This document shows, piece by piece, positions 2,282 to 64,000 of a DNA stretch of 64,000 nt. Source of the DNA: Lytechinus pictus (Eukaryota); NCBI RefSeq assembly GCF_037042905.1, contig NC_087245.1, positions 31,436,001 to 31,500,000 on the forward strand, read 5' to 3'. Numbering within the stretch: the stretch's first letter is position 1; every line of letters begins with the position of its first letter. The notes below the pieces were generated by a model. It saw only the letters and a program-made list of their open reading frames with translations. It did not search any database and was not told where the DNA came from. Both the position numbers and the translations under genes were made by a program.

Positions 2282-5200
2282 GTGAGTAGACTCCCCGACC
2301 CCGACCCCGGGCTGTGTACATGTAGCACACGTACCGGTATGGTAGTGGTCATGTGATGTGATGTGATGCGGTTTGCATGCAAAGCTAATATTAGACCAAA
2401 AAGCTTCGGTCTCTGTTATGTTGGTTGTTCAGCTGAACTCCGTTGGCTTCACTCACCAAATACAGAGACCGAAGTTCTAGCGCGATCTGTACAGGGGACT
2501 CAATGGCCATTAACCCAGGGAGCCCAGGACTGGAGCTTACCGTGTATTTTACCATACTCACGGGACTAGGGTGATTTATGCCATGGTCTAAATATTTCTC
2601 CAAATAAATTGTGAAAACAGAAATTATGCACTTACCACGATTATATGAATGAAGGTCCAACGAGTGGCAGTTTCCTGACATCTGGGCACAAACTGGAACC
2701 TCAAAAAAACGAAAAGTTCTCTCCTACCCCAGTCTCGATCGGCCATTTTGTTACAATTCATAACAAAAATGGCCGATCGAGACGGGGGTAGAAGGAGAGA
2801 ACTTTTCGTTTTCGTCAATTGTTTGCCGTGAAATGTTGTGAGGGTGCAACTACTAAAAGTACTAGTACAATGAATGACGATGTGTGCCGTAATTAATTGG
2901 TTGGAAGGCGTGACAAGTATTCAAAGGGACAAGACGCAAAAATTTTGCTCCGGCGAATCGCTTATTCATGCTTACACCTTCGTCACATTTGCTATACGGC
3001 GGCTGTACGGCGAGTCAATAACAGCCGTTTTAACATTTTATGTACGAGCTACATAATGTGGTTTGTATAAAAATGAATAAAACGGCTGCATTCGACTCGC
3101 CGTACGGCCGCCTTAGAGCAAATGTGACCAAGGTATTAGTACCTGATGATGTGAGCTTCCAAAAATATGTATATAATTCCCGTAAATTCCTGACAAAGAT
3201 GGAAAGGAGAAAAAAATTTGTTTTGGCTACCAGCGGAAGTAAAATGCGATCCGTCAAAGCATTCGATCAACCGCGGCGACCGCGCACAACGTCTACAGGC
3301 GCTGGACCCACTGAATCAGCTTGCAGAGCTCTGTTCGTTCCTGAAGATGTGACTACAACCGTGCCTAATAATAATTCCAAAAGCGCTGACAAATACGGCC
3401 GCATTGTCACTGGTACGTGATTCCTCCGAATTAGTCCTCAGAAAAGTTTAGTCACGACTCAGTATCGTTCTTGCTGTATACCCGCACGCTTAATATCAGT
3501 TTAATAGATACCATGTGCGCGCAAGCATACACAATACAAGGTACTTGAGGCAGAGCTTTGCCGCTATGAAACAAAATTCTCTTTACGCTACGTATAGCTC
3601 CAATAGCTCTAGCTTTTGCAGTAGCGTACGCAGAATTTTTGAAAGGTAGAGTTCGAGTTCAATGAAAATTTGAGGTTTTCACTCCCCCCCATTAGGTCTT
3701 TTCATAACAAAAAAATTACAAGCAATTTTTTAAATCTAAGTGGAGGGGGGGGTGAACTCCTGCAACATTCCCTGACCTTACCTCGGTCATTTTTGCTCTA
3801 TGACGGCCGTACGGCGAGTCAAAAACAACCGTTTTAACATTTTTTTTTGTAATAGCTACAAACACGTGGTCTGAATAAAAATGGATAAAACAGGTGTTTC
3901 CGACTCACCGTACGGCCGCCGTATAGAGCAAATATGACCGAGGCATTAGGAACGCAAAATCATGAGGATGGAAACTTGGATAAAGCAATGTTCATTATTC
4001 AATATTTGTTATGATTTCTCTTAATATCATGAAATGGCTGAGCAAATTACTTGTATATTTCTTAAAATAACTCAAAATGATGAAGAAACGAGTATCGATT
4101 TGAAATTATGAAATGATGAAGATTGACTTGCATTTTTACATTACAAATTTTTATTTTGCTTCTCAAATGGGGGGCATGGACCGACTGTGCCCCCCCCCCC
4201 CCTGCATCCGCCTCCAATGCTCATGGGTACTAGCATTCGTATTTATGCATACAACTTATTGAAATCCTCATCCATTCCCATTTCCCAGTCATGTTCAGTT
4301 CTTAATCTCCTTTGTTATTCGTTCTTTGAGTAGTTCGTAGTGGTCAAGAATTTGTTTAAATTATTCTCAAGACCCCAATGCACTTGAGTTACTTCGTTTT
4401 AGGAAAGATAACTCTTAAAGTCCCTTTGAAGCTTTGAAGTGAATGCCCCGGAGCGACTTGAATGGGTTCGATTAACTACACCGTCTCGCACGTGTTGCGA
4501 ACAAAGAAGGTGTGAAAATTACAATTAACAACTAACAATAGGAAGAATCCGTTTCAACTGAAGTTACGCAACGATCTCTGATAATCTCTAATTGTGCTTT
4601 CTTGACCCCAATGAATCCTCCCAAACCACATTGTCCAATGACGGAACTACTACAAGTAGTCAGCGTTTGTGAAAACGGAATGATGATCGAGGATGATATA
4701 ATGGTGATGGTAATACTGATGTTGGTGATAATGAAGAAGGATAAGGAGGATGAGGATGAAAGCGGTGGTAATGATGATGACGATAATAACATTTTTTTTG
4801 TTTTTTAATCTATAAGCATAATGATGTGTGAATAAAAAACAAGACATTATGATCGTGATGATGATATCGAAAAGAAAGGTAATGATGGCTGATTATGATA
4901 ATGGTGATGATTATGATTGTAATCCCAGCGATGATGACAATGACAAGAATGGTGATAATAATAATTATAATGTTGTTATAATGGTGATGTTAATAATGAT
5001 CGTAATTGATCACGAGAATATTTATTACGACAAGATTGATGATTATGGTAGCAATATAGTGATGATCAGAGGATAATATTTTGCTGTGGGGGACAATAAT
5101 GATGCACCCTATGAACGAAAGGTATATCAAATCTATTTTAACTTGTTGACACCTAAAAACAACTTTAAAACATGTTGTGATAGATCGCACACCCATCTGA

Positions 5201-8200
5201 GATGTTTGTGACTTCTATTCTGTTTTATTTACGTTTCCAACATCGTCGAGAAAAGACGTATTTAATATTTCTTAACGGAGAACAAGGGATCATAACGAAA
5301 GGTATATCAAATCTATTTTAACTTGTTGACCCCTCGAAAATATTTCAATCATGCCCTGATAGATCGCACACCCATCGAGATGTTTGTGACTTCTATTCTG
5401 TTTTATTTACGTTTCCAACATCGTCGAGAAAAGACGTATTTAATATTTCTTTACGGAGAACAGGGGATCATAACGAAAGGTAAATCAAATCTATTTTAAC
5501 TTGTTGACCCCTAAAAACGACTTTAAAACATGTTGTGATAGATCGCACACCCATCTGAGATGTTTGTGACTTCTATTCTGTTTTATTTACGTTTCCAACA
5601 TCGTCGAGAAAAGACGTATTTAATATTTCTTAACGGAGAACAAGGGATCATAACGAAAGGTATATCAAATCTTTTTTAACTTGTTGACCCCTCAAAAATT
5701 TTTCAATCATGCCCTGATAGATCGCACACCCATCTGAGATGTTTGTGACTTCTATTTTGTTTTATTTACGTTTCCAACATCGTCGAGAAAAGACGTATTG
5801 AATATTTTTAACGGACAACAAGGGATCACAACGAAAGGTATATCAAATATATTTTAACTTGTTGACACCTAAAAACAATTTTAAAACATGTCCTGATAGA
5901 TCGCACACCCATCTGAGATGTTTGTGACTTCTATTTTGTTTTATTTACGTTTCCAACATCGTCGAGAAAAGACGTATTGAATATTTTTAACGGACAACAA
6001 GGGATAAAAACGAAAGGTATATCAAATATATTTTAACTTGTTGACCCCGCGAAAAATATGTATCACCAATAAATATGAGATGCTACCAACTTCTATTTTG
6101 TTTTATCGACGTTTCCAACTTTGTCGAGAAAATGCATCTTTAATATTTCTTTACGGAGAACAGGGGATCATAACGAAAGGTAAATCAAATCTATTTTAAC
6201 TTGTTGACCCCTAAAAACAACTTTAAAACATGTTGTGATAGATCGCACACCCATCTGAGATGTTTGTGACTTCTATTCTGTTTTATTTACGTTTCCAACA
6301 TCGTCGAGAAAAGACGTATTTAATATTTCTTAACGGAGAACAAGGGATCATAACGAAAGGTATATCAAATCTTTTTTAACTTGTTGACCCCTCGAAAATT
6401 TTTCAATCATGCCCTGATAGATCGCACACCCATCTGAGATGTTTGTGACTTCTATTTTGTTTTCTCTACGTTTCCAACATCGTCGAGAAAAGACGTATTT
6501 AATATTTCATAACGGAGAACAAGGGATCACAACGAAAGGTATATCAAATATATTTTAACTTGTTGACACCTAAAAACAATTTTAAAACATGTCCTGATAG
6601 ATCGCACACCCATCTGAGATGTTTGTGACTTCTATTCCTTTTTATTTACGTTTCCAACATCGTCGAGAAAAGACGTATTTAATATTTCTTAACGGAGAAC
6701 AAGGGATCACAACGAAAGGATATCAAATATATTTTAACTTGTTGACACCTAAAAACAATTTTAAAACATGTCCTGATAGATCGCACACCCATCTGAGATG
6801 TTTGTGACTTCTATTTTGTTTTATTTACGTTTCCAACATCGTCGAGAAAAGACGTATTGAATATTTTTAATGGACAACAAGGGATCAAAGCGAAAGGTAT
6901 ATCAAATATATTTTAACTTGTTGACCCCTCGAAAAATATGTATCACCAATAAATATGAGATGCTACCAACTTCTATTTTGTTTTATCGACGTTTCCAACT
7001 TTGTCGAGAAAATGCATCTTTAATATTTCTTTACGGAGAACAGGGGATCATAACGAAAGGTATATCAAATCTATTTTAACTTGTTGACCCCTAAAAACAA
7101 CTTTAAAACATGTGGTGATAGATCGCACACCCATCTGAGATGTTTGTGACTTCTATTCTGTTTTATTTACGTTTCCAACATCGTCGAGAAAAGACGTATT
7201 TAATATTTCTTAACGGAGAACAAGGGATCACAACGAAAGGTATATCAAATATATTTTAACTTGTTGACACCTAAAAACAATTTTAAAACATGTCCTGATA
7301 GATCGCAAACTATTCTGAGATGTTTGTGACTTCTATTCTGTTTTACTTTCCTTTCGTCAATTATATTTCGTCATGGAGAACGGGAGTTCATAACGAAAGG
7401 TATACAAAATATATTTTCACTCGTTCGCCCCTCAAAACAATTTAAAAGCATGTCCTAATTCGCCACCGGTTTGCTTGCGCGACTCTCGTAAACACGGATT
7501 TTTTTTTTTTAATTGGTACTTTGTACAGGAAGCTACCAGGCAACCCCTATTCCCCCTCTCGTAGATCCGCCCGCACCTCACGCGCTGCATTCGCTGCAAA
7601 GCTTCGCTGCAAATGTTATCCGACGTGCACACCGAACACTGACCTCATTTTATGTGAAGTGTACGCTGGCGCGCTGTGTGTGTGTGTGTATGTGAACTTG
7701 CACTATTCAGTGTATTCTCGTGCGACGCTCCGGCGGATTAGCCAATAGCGATAGAGATATTAATTGCCCCGTTCCCCAGCGTGTACAGATTATGCAAATT
7801 AGCTTTAATGTAGAATATAACGGTACTTCGTACTAATCTCTTGGAACTCCTTTGCACACTCTCATTATGGAACAATGGCTATGCAGGCGTTGGAACGCAT
7901 TTGGGCTTTTGACGCCTCGCCTTAGAAGCCGCCTGGCTACTCGTACACAGACGGCTCGCTGGCGTGCAGCCACCATTAGGGGGTGAACAATGCAAAATCC
8001 CCCCGACGGGGCACATCGATTTTAGTCTTTATTTCATAGAAATATTGAAAAAAGAATTGAACCAAAATAGAGATTATTCGATTTTGGCGTGAAATGCACC
8101 AAAACGGGAAAAATAAACTTAAAAAGGCGAAAAACAGTGACTTACTTCGACTGTCGCGCAACTTCACTTCCCCGTTTTATCCGAGCTTAAGTACATAAAT

Positions 8201-11200
8201 TAATAATACTAATAGGTTAATCAAATTAAATTTAGACTCACTGATTTTAAAACCAATTACAATAATCTTTTCTTCTAAATAAATGTCTTTTTTAAACCAA
8301 TCTAATATTAAAGTGTGAACCTTTTTCCAAAAATCAGTTACTTGGTGACATTTTAACAAAACGTGAATAGATGATTCAGGTTCGTTAAAAAATGAGCAAA
8401 TAATGTTTGACGAGATCTTCCATTTAAAAAGATTTTCTCTAAATGGCAAAATATTGTGCAGTAATTTGAAATTAAATTGTCTCACTTTATTATATCTGAC
8501 ATTTTTCAACTTAAAATCTAATACGTGCTTCCATTCATAATCTATTGGTAGTTGACAAATTTCCTCCCACCACCCTGAAACAGGGGGGTTCTCTTGTTCT
8601 GATTCATTTAGTAATGAATAAAAATGTTTTGCTTTCATGCGACAAACTTTAATGAAATCACCAGATGATATTTCAAACATTTCTGGTTCAATTTTTGTTT
8701 CATCTTTGGTGTAAACTGTATTTCTTATTTCACTCACCCATACTTTTGGAAATGCCTTTTTCAATTTAGAAAATTTAAAATTTATTAACAATGAATTTGT
8801 GCCCAATCGTCTTTGTAATGAGTCACGATATCCACTGCCCATTTTTAAAAAGGTCACTGACTTTTTCAATCTCGTTAGCTTTCCACTCTTTAAAATATAA
8901 GAGGTCATTTCCGTGTTTGATATTGCTGTTGTACCATAATACTTGATCGAATACATCTTTAACGTTATAAAAGTGAACATATCTCAGTTCACTCCAGTAC
9001 ACAAGTAGATTGACATAAAACTCTGGTAATTTGAACTTCGTACATAAAAAAGCATATCTTTACTCGAACTGTTCATTCTCAAAACCTCCGATACATCTCC
9101 GATGAGGTTTATCCAGAATTTAAAAAATAGTCTCCATTGTGACTTGTCACCTTTAAGGTATTTTGTGAACCAAGATAATTGTAATGATAAAAATTTAGTT
9201 CTTAGGTTTACCATATCTAAACCCCAATTTTCTGGAGAGCGAGTAACAACCGCTCTCTTGACTTTTTCTTTTTTGGAACCCCAAAGAAAACTGTAAATTA
9301 ATTTGTTAAGTTTAGTCATGGTATTCTTTGGAATTGGTAAACATGTCCCAATGTATACAAATTGGGAAACAATAAGTGTTCTTATAATTGTTCTCAGTTT
9401 TTCAAGATATTAATTTAGATAAAGAGATATTTGACTGTGCGCAAAATTTGGTAACGCACGAATTAAGGTCACACCACCATATACCAAGTTGTTGGGTGTC
9501 CGGACAGGTTGTGTGTCGGTCGATCAATTTTAGAAAGTTATTTGATAACATTTACAAGCGAAGTTTCATCAATTTTTAGTACAAAATGTTAGGAAATATT
9601 AGGCCTATAGAGAACAAAAAAAGATGATTACAACTATTGAATTCATATTTTTAGTGTAATCCAAAGACAAAAAAGGAGGGCTTCAAAAATATAAAGTGTT
9701 CTGACACCCGACCCCCCATCCTAGGTACCGGTAACTTAGATCTACAACAGCTGCAGTGCAGTGTAACTGTTAGGGCCCAAGTTAGAATGCATTTTAAAGG
9801 AGTGTTTTGTTTTGTTTTGTATGCGGGCCGCGCATGCACACATATGGGTATCAAAACACTGATTTTTTTAAAAAGGGTGGTTTTGTGAAACTGGTCAATT
9901 GCGGGGTCAGACATATTTTTTTAATCAAAGCTTTTTTTTAAAGTCTAGCCAAACGTGTTTATTTTAGAGTACCGGTATGTTTTTTCCCCAAGCTTTTTCA
10001 CCGGGGCTTTTATTCCTCCTCGTTTCTGAAAGTGTTCGGGCCCGAGACAAAACCTGTTTAGGGGATATATTTTGGTGACAACTTGTTAAGGGGCCAAATT
10101 GTGTAAATTAATCCCACAAAAAACTTGTTTTGGGGGTTATTTTGCACACTGAGAAAAACTCATTTAGGGGGTGTTTGGAAATAATTTGGTCATGCATGTG
10201 TAGAGCAATACATTTGACTAGCCCTCTGGGGAACAAATACATGTATGTATAGCCATTATAGAGGAGTTGGTTGGAACTATGGTTCTGGAAGTGACGCCAC
10301 AATGTGACTAGATTCTTCATGTAGTTTCCTGAGGGGCACAGCCCCAAAACTGGCAAAGGAAAATGATCGCATTCACGTTAGGATAGGAGGACATAGTCTG
10401 GTCATACTAGTTCACCAGACCTCCGAACAAAGGCTGTATAGGCCTATGTAACCATCATCAGTATTAAAGCGACTTTACATTGACAAATCATGGGGAAATC
10501 AAGGCTAATCTAAAAATAGAGAAGGGATTCAAGTCTTTCACTCGGCTGCATGCCTGGGGTGTTTCGTAATAGATGCCGGCGTGTCTGGGAGGTCTAATCT
10601 TAGGAGAGCAATAGTTAGTAGACTAACCAACCAGAAGTAAACTGCATGTTTTCACTTTGAAACGTACCTCCACAGAGGTTATTTATTTTGCTTTAGCAAT
10701 CAAGAGACCTGCTATGAGTCTAGGGATTGGGATTGTTGGAAGCTAGAACTGCGACGATCCGAAGTAAATAACCATCGGTCAAATTCATGTGCTGTCCGAA
10801 TTTTATTGCATTAGTCCGACGGGCGCTCATGACGGACGGATTATATTATGCAAGTCAATTGGCCTTTTGCAAATTTCGTATTGATTCAATTTCCCCATGA
10901 TTTGTCAGTTGCCAGGCCCTTTAACTCTTGCATTTCATTTAAATACAACAGATAGGTAAGGTAAGGAAATAATTATAAGAAATCCCGGTCTTTGAGTGAG
11001 AAATGATTAATAATATTTGATAAAGATGATTGATCATTGCGTGTATGCGCACTGTTGTTACAATCTCCATGCGATTGATTAAAGCTTTGCCCGGCCCATC
11101 AAGCCGTAGATACCTGTAGTTATTGAACTATTTGCAGCTTGGGGTACTATTCTTGGCTTGTGACGTCATCAATGTCTGGATTCATGGCATTTTCCCGATT

Positions 11201-20200: not shown

Positions 20201-23200
20201 GATAAAATCGTGATGAAAATTTGTATTGCATTTGTATGGAAAGAAATAATGTACATATCACCAAAAACTGCATTAGGAATGACTCTCAAACCTCGTTGTG
20301 TATTTCACATCATTGTCTTTACAACGTAAGAAATTAAATCAAAGAAAATGTGACCTGCCACTCCAAAATAAGTTGCCAGGTTCCCTCTAAACAGTTAAAA
20401 TTAGCTCATTTGGAAGAGTAATTTTACTTCATACTGTCAATATTTAAAGTTCTAAAGTTAAATACAAGACCAGATACAAGAGTTTCTTTGACCCCATTTT
20501 TTCTGAAATGCCTGGATGTTTCATTTCTCAAGCTTTAGTGAACCTCAAATGTCGCACCTTTTGTCGATCAAGTACTTGAGTGGGATATTGATGAGTTGGG
20601 TATTTAAGCTCATGGTGTGCTTTATCAAGCTCAATAGAAATCTCGAAATTTCAAAATTTAATTTGGGTGACTTACTGCTTTTTTTTGGGGGGGAGGGGTG
20701 CTGGTGGGTCTCATACAGTATCTATGGTAGTACCAGTTCTGGCAAATAATCATTGTACCACAACTAGGACCTACCCATTTCAGAACTAATTTTGCAATAC
20801 GTTAAAATTTTATCATCTTTTAAATAAACTACATGAATTAATCATATCTTGGTTGTCATGTTGTAGTTCGTTTGATGAGTATTCTACCGAAGTGAAGTCT
20901 GGTCGTTTAGAGTGGAGTCCTGTTCACAAGAGCGAGAAGTTCTGGAGAGAGAATGCTGCCAGGCTGAACGAGAAGAACTATGAGCTACTCAAGTAAGTCA
21001 ATGATATACAAGTGACATTGCCTAGGGTGATTTTTTTTTAATTACAGGAATTTGTTGTACCAAGGTAAAATTCGACTTTAATATGTTCTTCACGCTTGTT
21101 TTGCCTATTCTGGTCTTAAATAATGCTTTGAGATGGGCAATCATTAGACTTTTGGATGGTAGAAAGTCTACTGCATGAAGTTTAGTCATCACAGGGGGGG
21201 GGGGGGTTGTTGGAAGCATCATGTTATGGTGGTTCTGACCTTGCCTTTCAATCAGAGGGTCGAGGGTTCAAATAATAATAATATGTCCATTTATATAGCG
21301 CAGTTACTATGTGCATATACTCAGCTGCGCTTTGATACTTACTTGGTATCATATTATTACCCCGGCTGTAGCTATGCCGCCATATTAATAGGCGCTAAAG
21401 CGTTCAAGGAATAAATCCTACCGGGTACCCATTCGCCTCACCTGGGTTGAGTGCAGCACAATGTGGATAAATTTCTTGCCAAAGGAAATTACGCCATGGC
21501 TGGGATTTGAACCCACGACCCTCTGTTTCAAAGTCCGGAGACTAATCCACTGGGCCACAACGCTCCACTCCAACGAATCCCACTTCAGGCATACATTTCC
21601 TCTATCTAGATACTAATTCTCTCATCACCATCTCTCCAAACTATATTCTGGTTCCCCCCCTCCCTCACTCTTTCTCTCTGGCTCATCTCATATATTTCAT
21701 TCTTTATATGCAGGATATTGACGAGATTGTTAGAGAGTTCTAAAGACCCTCTTATCCTGTGTGTCAGTGCTCATGATATAGGAGAGTATGTCAGACACTA
21801 CCCCAGAGGGAAAAAGTAAGTAGAAAACTGTTTCACATCTCTACAAAATTAGTATCCATTTGCGATTTAAAAGGTTATCTGGGAAATTAGGTAAGGTGCC
21901 TAATTAATCTTAACAGTATAGACAGATTTGTCGTACTAAGCTTCTTATAGATAGACGGTGACACGACATTTGCTCCTGCGACAATTTCTCCGGGCTTGAT
22001 TTCGTCTAAGATGTAGGGTGGGGTTGCAAAAGGGTTTTATTTTAGGTTTAGGGTAGGGTATAGTGTTAAGCCCAGGGTTGAAGTTGGCAATTTGATTAGA
22101 GTGTGGAATTTAGAGCGGAGCGATTGTCTGATTTCGCCTCTCCAAATCAACATACAAAAAGCTGTAGGTCAACATGGCGAGATAAGTTATCTCTCCAAGT
22201 TGACATACAAAAAGTGGATGGCAACATGGCGAGATAAGTTATCTCTTCAAGTCGACATACAAAAAGTGCATGGCAACATGGCGAGATACGTTATCTGTCC
22301 AAGTCGACATAGAAAAACTGTATGTCACCATGGCAAGATAAGTTATCTCTCCAAGTTGACATATAAAAAGTGTATGGCAACATGGCGAGATACGTAATCT
22401 CTCCAAGTCGACATACAAAAAGTGTATGGCAACATGGCGATATATGTAATCTCTTCAAGTCGACATATAAAAAGTGTATGGCAACATGGCGAAATCATTT
22501 TCTCGCCATGTTGACATAAAAAAAAGTTGTATGTCAACATGGCAAAATACGTTTTCTCGCCATGTTGACATAAAAAAGTTGTATGGCAACATGGCGAGAT
22601 AAGTTATCTCTCCAAGTTGACATACAAAAAGTGTATGGCAACATGGCGAGATACGTTATCTCTCCAAGTCGACATACAAAAAGTGCATGGCAACACGGCG
22701 AGATACGTAATCTGTCCAAGTCGACATACAAAAAGTGTATGGCAACATGGCGATATATGTAATCTCTTCAAGTCGACATATAAAAAGTGTATGGCAACAT
22801 GGCGAAATTATTTTCTCGCCATGTTGACATTAAAAAAAGTTGTATGTCAACATGGCGAGGTATGTTGTCTCTCCAAGTCGACATACAAAAACTTGTATGT
22901 CAACATGGCGAAATACGTTTTCTCGCCATGTTGACATAAAGAAAGTTGTGTCAACATGGCGAAATACGTTTTCTCGCCATGTTGACATAAAAAAGTTGCA
23001 TGGCAACATGGCGAGATAAGTTATCTCTCCAAGTTGACATACAAAAAGTGCATGGCAACATGGCGAGATACGTTATCTCTCCAAGTCGACATAGAAAAAG
23101 TGTATGGCAACATGGTGAGATACGTAACCTCTCCAAGTCAACATACATAAAGTGTATGGCAATATGGCGAGATACGTAATCTCTCCAAGTCGACATACAA

Positions 23201-24977
23201 AAAGCAGTATGTCAACATGGCAAGATAAGTTATCTCACGAAGTCGACATACAAAAAGTGTATGGCAACATGGCGGGATACGTTATCTCTCCAAGTCGACA
23301 AACAAAAAGTGCATTGCAACATGGCGAGATACGTAATCTCTCCAAGTCGACATACAAAAAGTGCATGGCAACATGGCGAGATACGTTTTCTATCCATGTT
23401 GACATTAAAAAAAAGTTGCATGTCAATATGGCGAGGTATGTTACATGTATCTCTCCAAGTCGATATACAAAGAGTTGTATGTCAACATGGCGAGATACGT
23501 TATCTCTCCATGTTGACATATTAAAAGTAAATTAGGTATCCGCAATGTGCACGCACCACATCCAGTTGGAAGCGAATCCAGGCCACTACTCGGCTGGCTA
23601 CAGATAAACATCTATGTGTGCACACGTTGTTGATAAAATGTTCTCTCACCAGTTACTTTTTATTATGTGTCAACTTTGTATGATGTTGACATACAACTTT
23701 TCATAAATTGACTTGGCAAGGTAATGTATCTCACCATGTCAATATACAATGTTTCATATGTCAACTTGGTGAGATAGTGTTCTCGCCATGTTGATTTTTT
23801 ATCGACTTGGCAAGAAAATGTATCTCGCCGTGATGATGACCTAATGACATTATCATGTTATTTCGCGAGAAAAAAATTCTTAATTGTGCATATTGTTTTT
23901 AACAATTTGTATCATAAACTATTTGCAATTTTGTAACATGTAACACCATGCAATCTTATTATATTTCCTGTATATGTTAAGAGGACTCTTTCTTACAAAT
24001 TTTACAAATTTCTTTCTTTCATATCTTCCAGAATTTATGATTATATTTGTTATAATTTTGTACAGTATATTGTTATGGTCTTTTTATGAGTGAATTTTTA
24101 AAAAATAAAGTGAACTGAAACTGGAATTGTTATCATTCATTTGTTTCTGATAGTGTGATAGAACAGCTAGGAGGCAAGCATCTTGTTATGCAGTACATGA
24201 CCCATGAAGATCCCAACGTTAGGTATGAAGCACTGCTAGCCGTACAGAAACTCATGGTTCATAATTGGTGAGTAAACTTCAGTAAACATCAGATCCTTTG
24301 ATCCAAGAAAAGCCTTACTTTCGAACTATCCCACTATTACAAGGATTTTTCTTGTTACAGGGTTCCCTCACTCATGGAAAATCCTTGAAAAATTTGTGGT
24401 CATGGAAAGTCAAGGAAAAGTCAGGGAATTTGGAAAATTTGTGAAAAGTCATGGAATTGCATTTACCTCTTGGCTATGGCAGCTTTCCAGTTGTGTCTTG
24501 CAATTCTCATACTCTGTGATCATACTCTGCTATGATAATTGGTGTTGATGATTTCTATTTTTCCCAGTTTATGACATCCCAAATTCTACATAACTCCCGG
24601 GATGTCACAGGAAGTCATGGAAAACAGCAATTAAGTCATGGAATTTCAAATTTCTGTAGGAACCCTGCGTTACTTATTGATAATGGAGAATAGGAAAGAT
24701 GCCTTTTTCACCCCTCCTGAAGTTTATTGCCTACGTTGTTAGTGGGTACCAGGCCCCATTAGAATGTAGCCATGAGCTATGAGCATTCAACTTGCACGTA
24801 TGTACTATGAAATGCACAAATTGTCCCCAGAGTAAATTTTATGAAATATGACTGGAGATAAATGTAATTGTAGTTATAGTATTCAAGACGTTCATTTCAG
24901 TCGATCCTTCTTTCCTTTTCTGTTGTATCCACAGGGAGTACCTAGGAAGGCAGCTTGTCCAACAAGAGACAAGCTAG
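2118..24977 (+). CDS. ATP6V1H: V-type proton ATPase subunit H (whole gene span, 11 coding exons, 1428 nt CDS, 475 aa)
   Basis: Exons 2118-2281, 14435-14624, 15573-15686, 16764-16966, 17260-17367, 18408-18492, 18862-19040, 20867-20992, 21714-21815, 24154-24267 and 24935-24977 join in frame across GT-AG introns. Hallmark motifs: [94 protein letters not shown]. Confidence 0.97.
2348..2356. promoter_or_regulatory. M-box / CLEAR-like MiT-TFE site at the start of ATP6V1H intron 1
   Basis: GTCATGTGA 67 bp after the exon-1 donor; GTCACGTCA at 1901-1909 upstream. Confidence 0.45.
2974..3135. mobile_element. MITE with ~45-bp TIR (ACCTTGGTCACATTTGCTCTACGGCGGCCGTACGGCGAGTCG), TTA flanks
   Basis: Three copies: 2974-3135, about 3780-3945 and about 19313-19474. 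Confidence 0.85.
3780..3945. mobile_element. Second copy of the TTA-flanked MITE
   Basis: cctcggtcatttttgctctatgacggccgtacggcgagtc...gactcaccgtacggccgccgtatagagcaaatatgaccgagg. Confidence 0.8.
4680..5075. repeat. (GAT)n-rich degenerate microsatellite
   Basis: Directly visible. Confidence 0.85.
5113..7460. repeat. ~180-bp satellite array (~13 monomers) in ATP6V1H intron 1
   Basis: gatagatcgcacacccatctgagatgtttgtgacttctatt... recurs at about 5179, 5357, 5537, 5716, 5895, 6237, 6416, 6596, 6775, 7117 and 7297, with variant monomers at about 6051 and 6931. Confidence 0.97.
8177..9390 (-). mobile_element. L1/Tx1-clade LINE ORF2 3' fragment (RT C-terminus + zf-RVT-like), disrupted
   Basis: [32 protein letters not shown] and [11 protein letters not shown]...C...[17 protein letters not shown]; frameshifts and stops between the ORF pieces. 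Confidence 0.85.
10464..10924. mobile_element. Degenerate TTAA-flanked TIR element
   Basis: ttaaag...tgacaaatcatggggaaat / atttccccatgatttgtca...ctttaa. Confidence 0.55.
11480..11890 (+). mobile_element. Degenerate RTE-clade LINE fragment
   Basis: Frameshifted pieces [31 protein letters not shown] and LCGVKI resemble the post-RT 'LLYGSETW' region of RTE elements. Confidence 0.55.
11900..12169. mobile_element. Harbinger-like MITE (TIR GGCCCCGTCTTACAAAGAGTTACGATTGATCC, TSD CTG)
   Basis: TIRs and CTG/CTG flanks; homologous copies at 48106-48377 and (partial) 50853-51055. Confidence 0.85.
12352..12490. mobile_element. Short Harbinger-like MITE (TIR GGGCC..TTTCATAAAG, TSD CAG)
   Basis: cag|gggcccatttcataaag...ctttatgaaactggccc|cag; relatives at 25060-25190, 1561-1708, 47772-47915 and 52442-52546. 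Confidence 0.75.
12977..13578. mobile_element. Non-autonomous TIR element with TTAA target duplication (Kolobok-like termini)
   Basis: TTAA|AGGACAAGTCCACCCC...GGGGTGGACTTGACCT|TTAA with long imperfect inverted arms. Confidence 0.85.
14435..14624 (+). CDS. ATP6V1H: ATP6V1H coding exon 2
   Basis: ttag|[19 protein letters not shown]...[13 protein letters not shown]; donor AAG|gtacgt. Confidence 0.95.
15573..15686 (+). CDS. ATP6V1H: ATP6V1H coding exon 3
   Basis: EKPERVSVF...[19 protein letters not shown], 114 nt, AG/GT flanks. Confidence 0.93.
16764..16966 (+). CDS. ATP6V1H: ATP6V1H coding exon 4
   Basis: SCRIVAKLA...[20 protein letters not shown]...DGIS(T). Confidence 0.95.
17260..17367 (+). 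CDS. ATP6V1H: ATP6V1H coding exon 5
   Basis: [27 protein letters not shown]...; donor AA|gtgagt. Confidence 0.95.
17328..17630 (+). repeat. Four degenerate ~75-80 bp tandem copies straddling the ATP6V1H exon 5 donor
   Basis: Unit tggtgtctttcaa...tgtgcacagata...gtgagtttta...gaatagggt starts at about 17328, 17411, 17484 and 17558. Confidence 0.85.
18408..18492 (+). CDS. ATP6V1H: ATP6V1H coding exon 6
   Basis: [28 protein letters not shown]; donor AGG|gtaagt. Confidence 0.95.
18862..19040 (+). CDS. ATP6V1H: ATP6V1H coding exon 7
   Basis: NLVEKPEE...[13 protein letters not shown]...[11 protein letters not shown]...MQDL(S). Confidence 0.95.
19313..19474. mobile_element. Third copy of the TTA-flanked MITE
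   Basis: tta|taccacggtcacatttgatctacggcggccgtacggcgagtcg...gtgaccaaggta|tta. Confidence 0.85.
20867..20992 (+). CDS. ATP6V1H: ATP6V1H coding exon 8
   Basis: [41 protein letters not shown](K). Confidence 0.97.
21270..21566 (-). mobile_element. tRNA-derived SINE, same head and core as the 48707 copy, different 3' part
   Basis: Reverse complement: ggagcgttgtggcccagtggattagtctccggactttgaaacagagggtcgtgggttcaaatccc..., with (ATT)n tail. Confidence 0.9.
21714..21815 (+). CDS. ATP6V1H: ATP6V1H coding exon 9
   Basis: [33 protein letters not shown]. Confidence 0.97.
22139..23832. repeat. ~52-bp palindromic-unit minisatellite with a downstream inverted degenerate arm (foldback-like)
   Basis: Unit tggcaacatggcgagatacgttatctctccaagtcgacatacaaaaagtgta repeated over about 22139-23522; reverse-complement degenerate units at about 23680-23832. 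Confidence 0.9.
24154..24267 (+). CDS. ATP6V1H: ATP6V1H coding exon 10
   Basis: [37 protein letters not shown](W). Confidence 0.97.
24358..24667. mobile_element. MITE with CAGGGTTCC termini and internal gtcatggaa repeats
   Basis: cagggttcc...ggaaccctg; a relative lies at about 16284-16613. Confidence 0.6.
24935..24977 (+). CDS. ATP6V1H: ATP6V1H last coding exon
   Basis: acag|G GAG TAC CTA GGA AGG CAG...TAG ([13 protein letters not shown]). A candidate AATAAA lies at 26908-26913. Confidence 0.93.
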
Positions 24978-50275: not shown

Positions 50276-50522
50276 GTAAAGTCACTAGAAAAAAAAATCA
50301 GTTTAAAAATCCTTACCTTGATTTATAATAGTTTAAATTCTAAATTCATGGTAACAATTATGGCATGCACTGCTGTAGAGGAAATGAAAATAGATTTCTT
50401 AAATAAAAACAATGAATTTAAAGACAATTGCATTTTCATCCTGGCACGGCTCATTATTAAGTAGATTAATTCATTCTTTCATTATGGTTTTACACATCAG
50501 CTCACATATCATATTTCAACTT

Positions 50523-50870
50523 TGGAATAGGTGATCAACCTAATTCAGGTTGTGACTCTGTTATCCATGGACCATGGCGGTCTTTCATACAGCTGCCAAT
50601 AGGGTGGCCAAGAATGCTGTCCCTTTATGGGGTTCTATGCAAATCATGTTGATTCCCAATAGCTTAAGTTTATATTTGAGCCCCGTCTTACAAAGATGGA
50701 ATAGGTGATCAAACTAATTCAGGTTGTGACTCTGTTATCCATGGACCATGGCGGTCTTTCATACAGCTGCCAATAGGGTGGCCAAGAATGCTGTCCCTTT
50801 ATGGGGTTCTATGCAAATCATGTTGTTTCCCAATAGCTTAAGTTTATATTTGAGCCCCGTCTTACAAAGA
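50523..50870. repeat. Near-identical 174-bp direct tandem duplication
   Basis: tggaataggtgatcaa...gagccccgtcttacaaaga starts at 50523 and 50697. Confidence 0.93.
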
Positions 50871-53074: not shown

Positions 53075-53242
53075 TCAAAGTCCAAGGCTAGGTGTCACCA
53101 CCTGCACAGTCGGTGCGATGGTGGTGGCAGGGATCTGTGGGGTATCCGACACATCCTGCAGGATGATCTTGGTGGCAAAGGCAAGAGCTATGGCTACGAT
53201 GGTGGTGAAGACGGAAGAGTAGCTCAACTCAAATCCAAACAC
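53075..53242 (-). CDS. GRL-like last coding exon (TM7)
   Basis: tgccag|VFGFELSYSSVFTTIVAIALAFATKIILQDV...PSLGL*. Confidence 0.85.
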   Translation of the reverse strand: MFGFELSYSSVFTTIVAIALAFATKIILQDVSDTPQIPATTIAPTVQVVTPSLGL

Positions 53243-56200
53243 CTGGCAGGAAAGTAGATACAATATGAACGCATAATACAGATGATAACTTGAACACCTA
53301 CTGGAAATACAGGAATATTCATGACGCATTAACTATGCAGATGTTACACTATTTTTGCAAGCACAATTCTGGAGCTTCCATACTATGTGACTTCTACCTC
53401 ATTTGAAAAGGACAAATTCTCCCCTTCAGATATCAAGTTAATGAGAATGTGTGTCTACATGATGCATTGGAGTGAATTAGTGTATTTTCATTCAAGTGGA
53501 CCTATATTACAAGACTAGACTACTCAGGGTCAACACGGCTCAGAATGTTGCATTGTGGGCAAGGATCCTGTACAACATTTGAGTAAATGATGACTCGAGG
53601 TAGTGTTATACTAGACTGCCGGTTCATATTTGCTTTAAGATCTACTTTAAAACCCATAACAACGTGCAGTACTTACTGTCAAAGAAAGAGGAGATTGTTT
53701 GATGAAAGCAATGATTCTCAGTCTGTCTTCTGTTGGGCAGATGCTCTGATTCAAAGAAAGGGGGATTAAAACGTGTACATTTTCAATTAAAGAAAACCCC
53801 AACAAAATGAAGTTTTGGCATTGCAAAAGAACCATCATTATGCTAGCATTCATTCAATTAAAGGAGAGCAATTTAATTTTTTTTTTCAAGTTCTGTTCAC
53901 AGGATGATGAAAATGTGAAATGATTATGATATGATGATGATGATGATGACAATGATAACAATGATGATGATGATGATGACAATGATAACAATGATGATGA
54001 CAATGATGATAATGTTGATGATGGTGATGATGACAATGATAACAATGATGATGATGATGATGACAATAATGATAGTGACGATGATGACAATGATAACAAT
54101 GATGATGATGACAATGATAATAATGATGATGATGATGATGATAATAATGATGATGATGATGACAATGATAATGATGATGATGACAATGATGACGATATTT
54201 ACTATAATAATGAGGTTATACAATGACGATAACGATATTGATGATCATCACCATCATCATCATCATGGTGATGGAAACTATCATAAGCATATTAACAGAG
54301 ACTTTGTATAGGGCAGACCGTCAATCACCCAGTTCTTCAGCATTTGGATAACAATAATATCCCTTTGGAAGCACATAGAGAAGGTATATAGTATGTCATA
54401 TGAGCTACAAATAAACTGAATAATAGTAATATTATTATAATCATTATTTCAATTTCTTTAATCATTATTATTATTACTTTTACCATTAGTAGTATTATCA
54501 TCATTATTATTATGATTATAATCATACATCACACAATATTGGCATTTTTGTAAAGCAATCTGCTTATAATGACAATCTTTCTCCTGCAAACTGTAAATGT
54601 TAAATTTTCTTTTTTGATAGTTGATCATATTTGTTTAGAATTTACTGTTTTATTTAGTTTTTTTTCTTTATGATTCATACCAAAACCAATTACCGATATA
54701 TTATGTTTGTTACGTAATGAAAATTGCATTGTAAACGAAAATGCAGAAGAAAACAATAGATCAAATCAAATCAATATTATCATTATTATTATTATTAATA
54801 CTATAATTTGACCTCTCACCTTTGGCACCTTGTGACCTTCACCATTGACCTCTGTTGGTCCAGCACACAGCATGGGTAAGATGGCCAAGGGCAACAGGAA
54901 GAGGAACATGTCAATGATGGATGCCTCATGACTGATCCAGTAGAGAAGGTACACCACACTCCAGAAGATGAGAAGAACAATCCAACTCAGCAGCCATCGC
55001 TGGATGCAGTGGGATGTGGTCCGGAGACGACACTGGTAGAGAATTACAAGGAGGAAAGATAATAAAAGTAAGAAGGAGAAAGATAATGATGATGATGATG
55101 GATGCCTCATGGCTGATCCAGTAGAGGAGATACACCACACTCCAGAAGATGAGAAGAACGATCCAGCTCAGCAGCCATCGCTGGATGCAGTGGGATGTGG
55201 TCCGGAGACGACACTGGTGGAGAATTACAAGGAGGAAAGATAATAAAAGTAAGGAGAAAGATAATGATGCTAATGATGGATGCCTCATGGCTGATCCAGT
55301 AGAGAAGATACACCACACTCCAGAAGATGAGAAGAACAATCAAGCTGAGGAACCATCGCTGGATGCAGTGGGACGTGGTACGGAGACAACACTGGTAGAG
55401 AATTACAAGGAGGAAAGAAAATAATCAGAAGAGGAAAAGAAGAGAGATATTAATATAATGATGGATGCCTCACGGCTAATCCAGTAGAGAAGATACATCA
55501 CATTCCAGAAGATGAGAAGAACAATTCAGCTCAGCAGCCATCGCTGGATGCAGTGGGACGTAGTGCGGAGATGGCACTGGTTGAGAATTACAAAGAGGAA
55601 AAACATATAGTATATGCCAATAAATAACCTGTTGACTTCTGTGATACCCACATTGATTTGTACAGGGATCAACTGGTTCCAGTAGGCAATGGGTTAACAT
55701 GATTTCATTTCATAATTTCGTAATGAATCAGCAAATTTACGATTTCTTTATGTGCTGCATTGGCTGTATACATATTCAAATTATATGAAGGTTTTCGACG
55801 CATGAAATTAGCTAAAATAAAATCCAGAGATTGCACTAGTCGAGAATTATAAGGAGAAATACACTGTTTAAGCCAATATTCAACATGATTTTATTTTCAT
55901 GATTTTTAATCAATTGGCATATTCATGATTATATTGGCTTTGTGTGCTTCAAAGGCTATATAAAAATAGAAACTTGAAGGTATTTGACTTGGAAAATCAT
56001 CAAAAATAAAACTATCATCAAAATGTCAGCTTACCGATATACACCAACCAAAACGTTCACTCTTAATTGTAATGGTACGTACATGTAACTCTACATGTAT
56101 ACAACTCTAATGCAGTCAAACCTTCTATACCGACCACATGTATAGAAGGACAGATTAAGACCTCAAGTTTGGTTTCCAACATCTCTTAATGTGATTTCCT

Positions 56201-58643
56201 ACTGTAATTGTAACTGTGTATAATGGACATACCTGCAATCTCCAATATTTTTCCAGTATTTCTTTATTCTCTAGAATCTTGATTCCTGGCACATGGCTGT
56301 ATTCCGAAGGAAGCTGACTCCTTGGCTGCATCAGAAATGAAATGACAAAAAAGGGTCATGATCTAGGATTATACAACATTTTCTACTCCTATGACAAACA
56401 ATGCTAAAAGAAAGAGTACTTTTATGTATAAACTTATAATTGTCCTTGAATACTGTTAATTCACCTTTGGTACCTTTCCAAAGCACATTGATGACCATAA
56501 CCATTCCATATCAAAGACTTACATGATGAGCTTGTTGGTTTGTGGTTGGCAGTAGATATAGACCTTACCCTAACCCTATGCACTGACATCAACAGCAGTT
56601 TAACAGCAATTCATGACTCTGTTTAACAGAGGACAAAGAATGACCTTGCCAACGTACCCTTTACCGGTGTACCCCAAAGCTAACATCGGGCAGGCCACAG
56701 ATGGAGTTATTCTTCATTCAAACATGATTCAATTGAACCAAGCTGGAAATTAAATTCACGTTTACACCTACCTCTCCAGTATTGGTCTGTCCAGCACCCT
56801 CCATACCAGAAGCAAGGAGATTAGCCCAGACATCATGGTTGAAGAGATCACCGTCGACAGAATCTACACCCATGCTGGTACGATGAAGTCTAGTGACAGA
56901 CTGCTTTCTCCTCTCATACTCGTTCATATCCCACTCATCTAAACATAAAAATAGCAGTGAATGAAAGACATTACTATCTTCTCTAAACCTTTATTGGGAA
57001 AAGTAAATAGTGTATGTGAGTGCCTGCATACACTGTACCATTTTTTCAAAAGTGAATGCCCAACTATCAAAACAGTTTTAAAATTGCAGTATCAGAGTTG
57101 CAACAGGTGTGTCCTCTGAGAGCTTCCATATTTCTTACAAATTGAAACTTTGAAAATTATGATTTTTTTTTCTTCCAGAAACCTATTGAAATTATGGAAA
57201 TATTTGTTTGACAAACCTAAGTTTGTACATAGCAAATTCGATTTGGACACTTGCCTTCAAGATCTTTGATGACTTCTTCAGAGGTTGGAGAGGCTAGATT
57301 TTGATATTCAGCATGGGTGCTGTCGTTTAGGCTTGCATTGTGGGCTCCATCCACCTGGTCCTCCACAAGGCTGGTTGTGTGGCGACGTCGTCGACCTCTC
57401 TGATGATGAAAGTTGTTGATATGGCAGATCATGGCATCCTCGTCTAACTCGAGGAGAAAATGGCGAACACCTAAAAGCAAGAATAGGGGGAAAAATTAAT
57501 ATCATCAATTAGATGCACTACATACATTGTATTTGGAACAATAATCTCCCAGAATATTTGTTATGACGGAATAGGATGTTGTGATGTACAGGAAATAATT
57601 TCACTTCTGAAGTTTGATTATCATTTCTGGTTGTAAGAGAAAATATTTCAACTATTTTCTGGACAGTCTTGTGTAAAACTAAGTTACTACACAAAAGAAA
57701 TTTTGTTTAGCAGTCATAAACAAATGTGGAGCATATCATGATGCTATACCAAGAAAATTATTCCCTGAATAAAGAGTGTAGAGTCATAAAACAAAATACA
57801 TATTGTTATTATTGATTTTTTGTTTTTGATTATCAATAAAAACTAAAGAGGGGGAAAACAAAATGATAAGATAAAACAGGGGGAGGGGAGGGACTTGCGC
57901 GAACTGTTGGCAATATAGCATAATTCAAGCATTTGATTCACATACTTATTAAATTTCTGTAAGAGTGATCTTGTACCTTAAAAAGTAACATCCAATAAAA
58001 AAAATAAAACTACAACAAGCATTAAATAGTATAAAACATAAGATTCTACTGTACACATGCATTAAATCGTATACTTACTTATCGTGTGAGTGCGACAAAC
58101 AGACAAGCACACCACTGCTACCAGCATGTTCCACACAAATGAGAAAACAGTCAATCCTACAAGGCAGCTATATTGCACATAGCATATCCACGGTGATATA
58201 GAGACAGCAATACAGGTCTCAGCGTGAAACAGATTGAAGTTATCATAGTTGTAAAGACCAATGAACATCATACCCAGCAGGCCGATGACGACGGCAGAGT
58301 TTAGCTTGAGGAAGCTCTTGGTGTGGAGCCTCACGCTCTGCACAAAGAGACGGTTCGTGAAGAGACGGAAGGCAAGGTTGTTGGCGTAGACGCTGACGGC
58401 ACAGAAGCCCATGGCCATGATGATGTTGACGGTGCCATTCAGAGAATCGAAGGTGGTGTTCTGGGAGACGATGTCCGCCACGGTGTACCAGGTGTAGTTG
58501 ATGAAGTAACCGACCGTGCATATGAGGGTCAGGACGTAGAGGATGGTGGCGAACCAGGGCTTGTCTTTGGGATGGGTTTTGATTCCGAGGGATTTGGCGA
58601 TGATGTACCAGAGCCAACGGGGAAGAGGGCGGGATTGCTTCAT
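53075..58643 (-). CDS. Seven-TM gustatory-receptor-like (GRL / 7TMIC superfamily) protein, whole gene span, 7 coding exons, ~496 aa
   Basis: Exons 58643-58079, 57470-57255 (GC donor), 56938-56772, 56325-56233, 55032-54820, 53745-53677 and 53242-53075 join in frame. There are seven hydrophobic segments with a long polar loop between TM4 and TM5, and a C-terminal PLSLT|VFGFELSYSSVFTTIVAIALAF resembling GR TM7a/7b. The C-terminal introns are phase 0. The start Met is uncertain (acceptor at 58729; the open frame extends to 58745). The family call is inferred, with no search run. Confidence 0.75.
53677..53745 (-). CDS. GRL-like exon
   Basis: aatcag|SICPTEDRLRIIAFIKQSPLSLT|gtaagt, 69 nt, phase 0/0. 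Confidence 0.83.
53917..54275. repeat. (GAT/AAT)n trinucleotide microsatellite
   Basis: Directly visible; produces spurious poly-M/I/S ORFs. Confidence 0.95.
54820..55032 (-). CDS. GRL-like exon encoding TM5-TM6 (only complete copy of a tandemly repeated exon start)
   Basis: taccag|CRLRTTSHCIQRWLLSWIVLLIFWSVVYLLYW...LPLAILPMLCAGPTEVNGEGHKVPK|gtgaga. Confidence 0.85.
54913..55605 (-). repeat. Four tandem ~180-bp copies of the 3' splice site plus first 40 codons of the GRL TM5 exon
   Basis: Exon-start equivalents at 55032, 55213, 55391 and 55576 (periods 181, 178, 185), each preceded by a pyrimidine tract and CAG. Confidence 0.95.
56233..56325 (-). CDS. GRL-like exon
   Basis: atgcag|PRSQLPSEYSHVPGIKILENKEILEKYWRLQ|gtatgt, 93 nt, phase 0/0. 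Confidence 0.8.
56772..56938 (-). CDS. GRL-like exon (loop)
   Basis: tttag|AT GAG TGG GAT ATG (DEWDMNEYERRK...TNTGE); donor GAG|gtaggt. Confidence 0.78.
57255..57470 (-). CDS. GRL-like exon (intracellular loop), GC-AG donor
   Basis: ttttag|GT GTT CGC (SVRHFLLELDEDA...); ends GAA G|gcaagt, phase 1, matching the next exon. Confidence 0.75.
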
Positions 58644-58729
58644 TGTGCCCGAGCGCACCTCATGCGCCGGAAGAGACCGGAAACCCTCCTGCTGGATGGT
58701 GGGGTTTGCTGCTGCAACATGTTGCAAAC
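58079..58729 (-). CDS. GRL-like exon encoding TM1-TM4
   Basis: Long GC3-rich ORF (track 58062..58745); acceptor tatcag|G, donor A|gtaagt. Confidence 0.88.
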
Positions 58730-58839
58730 CTGATACAGTATTCATTCTAATGGCTTAGAAGAAATGAAAGAAAAGAAAACTTTTCCAATCTTGTGAGTTA
58801 TATATCTCATTATAAATGCCCATTTAATAAATTAAAATA

Positions 58840-63928: not shown

Positions 63929-64000
63929 AGGACGCAATGATGATGATTTTTTATATACTGTCATATGACAGTATATAAAAAATCATCATCATTGCGTCCT
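63929..64000. repeat. Perfect spacerless palindrome centred at 63964/63965, truncated by the window end
   Basis: aggacgcaatgatgatgattttttatatactgtcat|atgacagtatataaaaaatcatcatcattgcgtcct. Confidence 0.97.

Follow-up and report, generated by a model that had tools for sequence, protein, structure and literature searches.

Tandem partial copies ahead of a receptor-like exon in a sea urchin are most likely a neutral, spliced-out mirage array

Tandem copies of an intron-exon boundary are known from amphioxus as mirages, and two reports place them in Adh3, the globins BflGb6 and BflGb9, troponin C and PGBD5 (PMC3087553, PMC3902484). Splicing is described there as unaffected and copy number as variable among haplotypes, and the way in which mirages arise is called unclear (PMC3087553). 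In human, CBS 844ins68 (PMC2630376) is one polymorphic extra copy of 68 bp, which duplicates an acceptor junction; the distal site is used, the mRNA is normal, and gene conversion from the skipped copy was proposed. The 37-bp VNTR of F7 intron 7 (PMC1557585) has near-identical units spanning a donor boundary, whose extra splice sites are functional but silent, with a selection rule shown experimentally.

We analysed a window of 64,000 nt from Lytechinus pictus, in which an array on the - strand repeats the start of one exon. The array belongs to the mirage class. Like the amphioxus cases as described, it consists of minisatellite-like tandem copies of an intron 3' end plus the 5' part of an exon; the unit size is close (178-185 nt, versus 150-160 bp in BflGb6), the AG is kept, the authentic copy alone is spliced, identity is 81-100%, and units appear to exchange sequence. 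It differs from what those reports describe in its echinoderm host, in codon-level evidence that units came from live alleles, and in the repetition of the same orthologous boundary in several lineages. As in CBS 844ins68, an acceptor junction is duplicated, the distal site is used and the mRNA is normal, but here there are three extra copies of ~180 nt, shared with a relative. The F7 repeat likewise spans a boundary, although on the donor side. The array also resembles cases where a tandem duplication in coding sequence is absorbed by splicing, except that it makes no new intron and lengthens an old one. Mutually exclusive tandem exons, too, are tandem copies of one exon's sequence with acceptors. 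The window copies are unlike them in being partial, out of frame and decaying, and they have no strong donor and run into stops on read-through.

The host gene has seven exons on the - strand, which join into a 530-codon frame with no internal stop and seven hydrophobic segments. This model equals a RefSeq protein labelled Lytechinus pictus (P0017), with 0 differences across 530 residues. Coding exon 1 (58079..58745) holds TM1-TM4. Exon 2 (57255..57470) ends in a GC donor, and the RNA joint 56938-57255 has the ends CT..GC; the donor of this intron 2 (57255) was confirmed by joints in three RNA runs. Exon 3 (56772..56938), exon 4 (56233..56325, donor 56233) and live exon 5 (54820..55032, 213 nt, phase 0-0, TM5 and TM6) are given by both model and RNA. 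Exon 6 (53677..53745) and exon 7 to the stop codon (53075..53242, TM7) come from the model and lie outside read coverage. The last four introns are in phase 0.

Orthologues were found in echinoderms, amphioxus, nemerteans, a brachiopod and arthropods. When the host protein was searched by sequence against Pfam and PDB, no family was matched. The predicted model of one allele (P0001, pLDDT 67) was compared by Foldseek, and in the first 18 matches listed every structure was an insect GR or OR; their probability was 1.00 and their E values ran from 0.002 to 0.095, so that none reached E <= 0.001. Identity of the host protein to insect receptors is 8-12%. This predicted fold supports membership of the 7TMIC (GR/OR/GRL) superfamily at the level of the fold. 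The label GRL, used in an earlier note made from the letters of the window, is thus fair for superfamily and fold, and the subfamily may be GRL or GrlHz. The TM7 consensus of the superfamily is TYhhhhhQF, of which the best reading in the host protein keeps T and F only. Compared with the superfamily as described in PMC7746228, PMC9998090 and bioRxiv 10.1101/2023.08.30.555482, the host gene is alike in its seven hydrophobic segments and predicted insect GR/OR fold and possibly in its phase-0 introns at the 3' end, and unlike in the absent Pfam match and the 8-12% identity.

The array comprises four tandem units, each an acceptor plus the first 120 nt of exon 5, which encode TM5. The unit exon starts are 55576, 55391, 55213 and 55032, each preceded by CAG, with periods of 185/178/181 and spacers of 65/58/61 nt. 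TRF reported a period of 178 and 3.8 copies at 54913-55601, and the head-to-tail unit spans the intron-exon boundary. Dead copy 1 (55457..55601) holds ~25 nt of acceptor homology and exon-5 nt 1-120 (55576-55457), with a stop at codon 17. Dead copy 2 (55272..55456) holds the 65-nt spacer/acceptor and exon nt 1-120 (55391-55272) and is a mosaic. Dead copy 3 (55094..55271) holds the 58-nt spacer/acceptor and exon nt 1-120 (55213-55094). The last spacer with the live 3' splice site (55033..55093) has 82.5% pyrimidine, a branch-like CTTAC at -37 and the RNA joint 56233->55032. CAG, pyrimidine tract and branch-like motif are kept in 4/4 units, and all four acceptors appear usable; the earlier note had called the three upstream AGs intact-looking. 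The three downstream acceptors have 82.5% pyrimidine, versus 60-72.5% in the gene's five other acceptors. Only the 55032 copy reaches the donor (exon 55032-54820). By inspection, the upstream copies have no strong GT donor and no convincing cryptic donor. Exon 5 occupies a single locus in the assembly, and the copy number of four is the assembly's own figure.

The nearest copy, 55213, differs from 55032 at 6 nt, all synonymous: five substitutions, and a sixth at the last base of the unit, which adjoins the ATC microsatellite of the spacer and may be a breakpoint slip. Its first 47 nt are the same as in the live exon, and BLAST aligned bases 1-119 only (96%). Copy 55391 has 10 nt differences from 55032, giving 6 synonymous codons plus R>C, L>F and W>L. 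The outermost copy, 55576, is the most diverged, with 13 nt differences giving 8 synonymous codons, 4 missense and TGG>TGA. Our comparison reproduced the earlier note's exon starts, 40-codon unit, periods, single donor after the last copy, tally for 55391 and the very same six codons for 55213; for 55576 its 4 missense changes and stop held, while its 7 synonymous changes are 8 in our count.

An independent DNA run of a relative, organism B, was also searched. One of its contigs runs from intron to decayed copy, spacer, AG and next copy. Its introns are ~10% diverged from the window, and the array breakpoint is the same. The decayed copy has R>C, Y>C, A>S and apparently 5 nt missing, the second copy has L>F at codon 3, and copies and spacer differ from those of the window by substitutions and indels. 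Organism B has at least 2 copies and probably at least 3, with contigs breaking inside the repeat. The array is therefore older than the split between the two and not an artefact of assembly.

The acceptors joined to donor 56233 in RNA were recorded, which is part of a check proposed in the earlier note. The RNA contig X1 has 0 differences from the window in exons 2-5. It showed a single joint from 56233 to 55032 (depth 117) and depth 0 at 55085-55569. The mRNA of the haplotype matching the window is thus shown to use the last AG. In dead copy 1 (bin 55473-55569), depth was zero in 3 RNA runs.

The raw RNA runs X21 and X22, of which about 6% each was read, carry a diverged allele. Among the joints listed from 56233, the counts in X21 and X22 were 6 and 7 at 55032, 7 and 18 at 55213, and 0 and 4 at ~55385, so that 55213 joins 25/42 raw junction reads at face value. 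This face-value reading was rejected by array depth and read length. The depth at 54891-55472 was 2233 and 4141 read-bases in X21 and X22; one exon predicts 2254 and 5205, and read-through from 55213 predicts 3801 and 9324. In X22, the depth of exon 5 is about 20% below that of exon 4. The depth on nt 1-32 of 55213 equals the junction-read counts (6.94 versus 7; 18.01 versus 18), and reads on this copy end as if evenly spread from nt 32 to 120. All reads listed on 55213 mismatch it at nt 42 and 45 (6/6 and 15/15). We then ran a simulation in which the live allele was given the dead-copy state at nt 45, 48, 84 and 102: 57% of the reads were placed on 55213 with a mean length of 75, and the observed share was 7/13 and 18/29 with a length of 74-76. 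The C at nt 48 in X21/X22 is inferred and is not among the variants listed; without it, the simulation places 12% on 55213. Because the array depth fits one exon, the depth on 55213 equals its junction reads and the simulation matches, the upstream joints behave like misplaced reads of a diverged live allele. This reading comes from depth bookkeeping and simulation, not from inspection of individual reads.

Our results argue with good confidence for a tolerated mirage minisatellite that is most likely neutral and spliced out. The mRNA is limited to the authentic boundary, directly in X1 and by depth bookkeeping and simulation in X21/X22. CATC/ATC microhomology, shared by exon nt ~110-120 and the ATC-rich intron tail, may have started the array through slippage or unequal crossover. 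Under exon definition, donor 54820 would pair with the acceptor closest to it, at 213 nt rather than 394/572/757 nt, and the upstream acceptors are presumably ignored because they lie farther from the donor. The upstream copies would then end up intronic, and any leak would be an NMD target. Unequal crossover or conversion between very diverged alleles could move recently live sequence beside the live exon. A freshly captured allele would be synonymous-only, since live alleles differ only synonymously, and older copies would decay randomly. That other lineages should carry arrays at this very acceptor does not follow from the neutral model alone.

Such recurrence is what we found, and a possible addition to the neutral mirage is that, across animals, the boundaries of this exon have an unusual tendency to be duplicated; we rate that somewhat below an even chance. 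In amphioxus (Branchiostoma lanceolatum), residues 1-36 of the exon recur in the gene models P0009 and P0010, starting at the same Q| boundary. The linker of P0010 re-encodes 26/27 of the first residues in a shifted frame (the maximum in 150 shuffles was 16), giving at least 3 copies of the exon start, the third in a shifted frame; similarity between the linkers of P0010 and P0009 was not above shuffles. Two metagenome-derived genomic orthologue loci cover this acceptor, and both have acceptor arrays: L007 with copies at 4859 and 4943 before the live 5017, and L010 with copies at 4444, 4565 and 4640 before the live 4715. Arrays were thus present in 2/2 loci at this acceptor versus 0/18 other acceptors there (Fisher p = 0.005). 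Copies of the exon's donor side occur in L007 and in model P0032 (B. belcheri). ORF P0131 contains, just upstream of the acceptor, a repeat of 41 aa that scores 82 against a shuffle maximum of 42. One of its units resembles the exon start in a shifted frame (1/120 shuffles; 17/120 for the other unit), and the ORF is suggestive as a further recurrence.

The sample behind this pattern is small and partly dependent. There are just two unbiased DNA loci, and the contigs that supplied the 18 control acceptors are few and partly related, with boundaries set by hand from tblastn. The amphioxus cases are visible only through models that took in the repeat, and mirages are frequent in amphioxus (PMC3087553). 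P0137, an unspliced ORF long enough to judge (46 aa of read-through), has no copy. Other boundaries in the same loci are copied too, as at the donor after TM4, unit lengths differ (74-185 nt), and the acceptor array of L007 is ungraded (nearest copy 18/30, farther copy 26/30). In a shifted-frame test of 101 proteins, P0010 alone clearly exceeded shuffles, most of the set being spliced models that cannot show mirages; 113/115 proteins carrying the TM5-start stretch have a single in-frame copy. Given the tiny sample, the related controls, the other copied donors and the varied unit lengths, independent origins at a possible hotspot are likelier than an ancient or selected device.

A likely cause of such a hotspot would be an island of near-identity between very heterozygous homologues, in which crossovers and conversions resolve, with misrepair at the edges. 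Put more widely, the TM5-TM6 exon may be a cross-phylum mirage hotspot affected at both ends (sea urchin, amphioxus, two other animals, perhaps sea cucumber), with units supplied by exchange between diverged homologues at ultra-conserved exons and arrays that are ordered former live alleles, which would provide a mechanism for mirages; we propose this tentatively, as an idea that may well prove wrong. Our literature search, with most subscription journals outside its scope, found no paper on sea-urchin mirages or on orthologous recurrence.

Several related arrays were seen. L007:5192-5910 is a graded array of about six units, each the last ~40 nt of the TM6 exon plus donor and GT-rich tail, with the nearest unit most alike, and it is the mirror image of the window array. 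The donor after TM4 is duplicated at L010:1241-1458, L014:136-305 and, weakly, L011:1277-1308, so that copies gather at either boundary of the long TM4-TM5 loop. The models P0009, P0010 (acceptor side) and P0032 (donor side) include mirage copies and are probably mis-annotated read-through.

The synonymous-only difference of 55213 bears on where the copies came from. With four copies to polarise the changes, nt 48, 84 and 102 are private to the live copy, nt 54 and 87 are private to 55213, and one is the breakpoint base. Two of the three letters private to the live copy are specific to certain alleles. The dead-copy letter at codon 28 (nt 84) was present in 10/10 transcript reads of X21 and 22/22 of X22. 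At codon 34 (nt 102), the dead-copy letter is segregating in these runs (5/12 and 8/25), and organism B has the dead-copy state at both nt 84 and nt 102. In the 120-nt unit, X21/X22 differ from the window at no fewer than 4 synonymous sites, about as many as 55213 does. The allele differences listed for X21/X22 that are assignable to exon 5 are synonymous in 7/7 cases. The 40 residues are identical in 8/10 sea-urchin proteins compared, from Lytechinus to Diadema, with one change in two S. purpuratus records; with the protein invariant here, live alleles differ only synonymously.

These results suggested that 55213 is best read as a recent capture of a live allele through unequal crossover or conversion, which would explain the synonymous excess without any function. 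The rival reading is pure serial duplication in one lineage, with copies dead since birth and the synonymous-only pattern due to chance. That six random changes are all synonymous has P = 1.4e-4 (any change) to 3.5e-3 (C/T only), and under a null of a copy dead since birth beside a constrained live copy, five such changes have P = 0.007-0.017. Only two changes are private to 55213, and for these the same null gives P = 0.05-0.08. All of these values are post hoc, and the finding was picked from many windows. Dead copies beside control exons elsewhere in this genome pool 24 synonymous and 31 non-synonymous changes (44%; summed by hand, with L054 left out as a duplicate), about the null expectation, which also favours chance. 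Against it, the dead copies together have 11/18 synonymous changes (P = 0.0005-0.004 if all were neutral), so that much of the divergence arose under coding constraint, and expressed alleles carry dead-copy letters. Moreover, the private changes of 55391 all lie in nt 1-50 and none in nt 52-120 (permutation p = 0.014), a mosaic with a breakpoint near nt 50 that supports concerted evolution, or exchange among units, in the dead copies. We consider pure serial duplication unlikely. The earlier note had proposed serial duplication leaving fossils of the live exon and exchange by gene conversion, and both ideas gain support here; its further suggestion of synonymous drift in whichever copy was used gives way to captured allelic diversity, which is simpler, since expressed alleles carry the dead-copy letters.

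The host gene itself varies. In X21 and X22, whose label names the same species, at least 9 of the exonic sites listed differ from the window in all reads. Two amino-acid variants of these runs are shared with RefSeq alleles of L. pictus, and the conspecific status of the runs rests on the label. The RefSeq alleles P0001 and P0020 are 7 and 4 residues off the window. High polymorphism is suggested by these sequences.

It is quite improbable, in our judgement, that the upstream AGs are used in some cells as regulated poison acceptors or for an alternative C-terminus, yielding RNA that NMD degrades or a truncated subunit with five helices that would tune the channel. By the 50-nt rule, a stop codon lying farther than this upstream of the last junction makes an RNA a target of NMD, and the read-through stops lie 175, 356 and 775 nt before that junction. 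The predicted read-through proteins are 476, 475 and 397 aa, so any upstream acceptor does truncate the protein, as the earlier note had stated; its explanation by frame fails for 55576, where the copy's own stop is responsible. Intact-looking acceptors, persistence of the array across a species-level split, joints to 55213 among those listed, and recurrence in other lineages if read as selection would all fit regulation. However, the spacers have no read-through depth in X21/X22 and none at all in X1, and the array depth sums to one exon, so neither the competing poison acceptors nor the alternative C-termini of the earlier note left a signal. Missense changes, stops and an apparent deletion accumulate in the copies of both organisms, copy and spacer sequence is unconserved between window and organism B, unit length and frame vary across lineages, and amphioxus mirages left splicing unchanged by RT-PCR (PMC3087553). 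A search for relatives of the dead-copy read-through ORF gave 2 candidates, neither of which scored, so none were found. NMD hides isoforms from steady-state RNA, and it is possible that low-level use of upstream acceptors is masked in this way.

A haplotype-merging assembly artefact, which the earlier note had named and which would give synonymous-only differences between two haplotypes and could affect the nearest copy at most, is hardly credible. In DNA of organism B, one contig reads across the junction of copy, spacer, AG and copy. Two haplotypes would not account for three dead copies that carry stops and missense changes and are set apart by three unlike spacers, and the locus is single in the assembly.

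The background frequency of such copies was estimated in the same genome. Ras and kinase exon matches had a partial copy within 1 kb in 7/140 cases, with HMM match edges standing in for exon edges; these are 6 independent cases (L054 and L059 are duplicate loci), 2 of acceptor type, 2 of donor type downstream and 2 other. Among 2800 draws of random non-exon segments, 231 (8%) had a copy nearby, so exons are not enriched over background. The partial exon copies lie at L059/L054, L074, L086, L109, L135 and L138; a graded donor array is present in L059 and L054, which are near-identical.

Other repeats were recorded in the window. One unit of a dispersed 76-bp satellite lies at 55625-55701, ~50 nt upstream of the first copy; this satellite has at least 206 matches, forms long arrays elsewhere and is abundant in RNA reads. 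Tandem arrays lie at 5114-7345 (period 179 x 12.6) and 22138-23528 (period 52 x 26.5), a 174-nt pair (97%) at 50514-50861, a LINE-type retroelement fragment at 8177-9409 (-; zf-RVT match, E 9e-7) and a perfect 36+36 nt palindrome at the window edge (63929-64000). Elsewhere, G000:C7:28966763-29009091 holds at least 11 kinase-domain matches in tandem, ten equal in score, spaced ~4.0-4.3 kb.

Taken alone, the window array is one more mirage, a class that the earlier note neither named nor called common here, in a genome where ~5% of the sampled exons have a nearby partial copy. It carries a warning: mirage copies draw reads that come from diverged alleles and so mimic alternative 3' splice sites (25/42 junction reads here), and they enter gene models, as in amphioxus P0009, P0010 and P0032. 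One donor here faces nearly identical competing acceptors at distances of 213, 394, 572 and 757 nt, which makes a natural test of exon definition in an invertebrate. If the recurrence at this one orthologous exon is real, it would give a handle on how mirages arise that can be tested across genomes.
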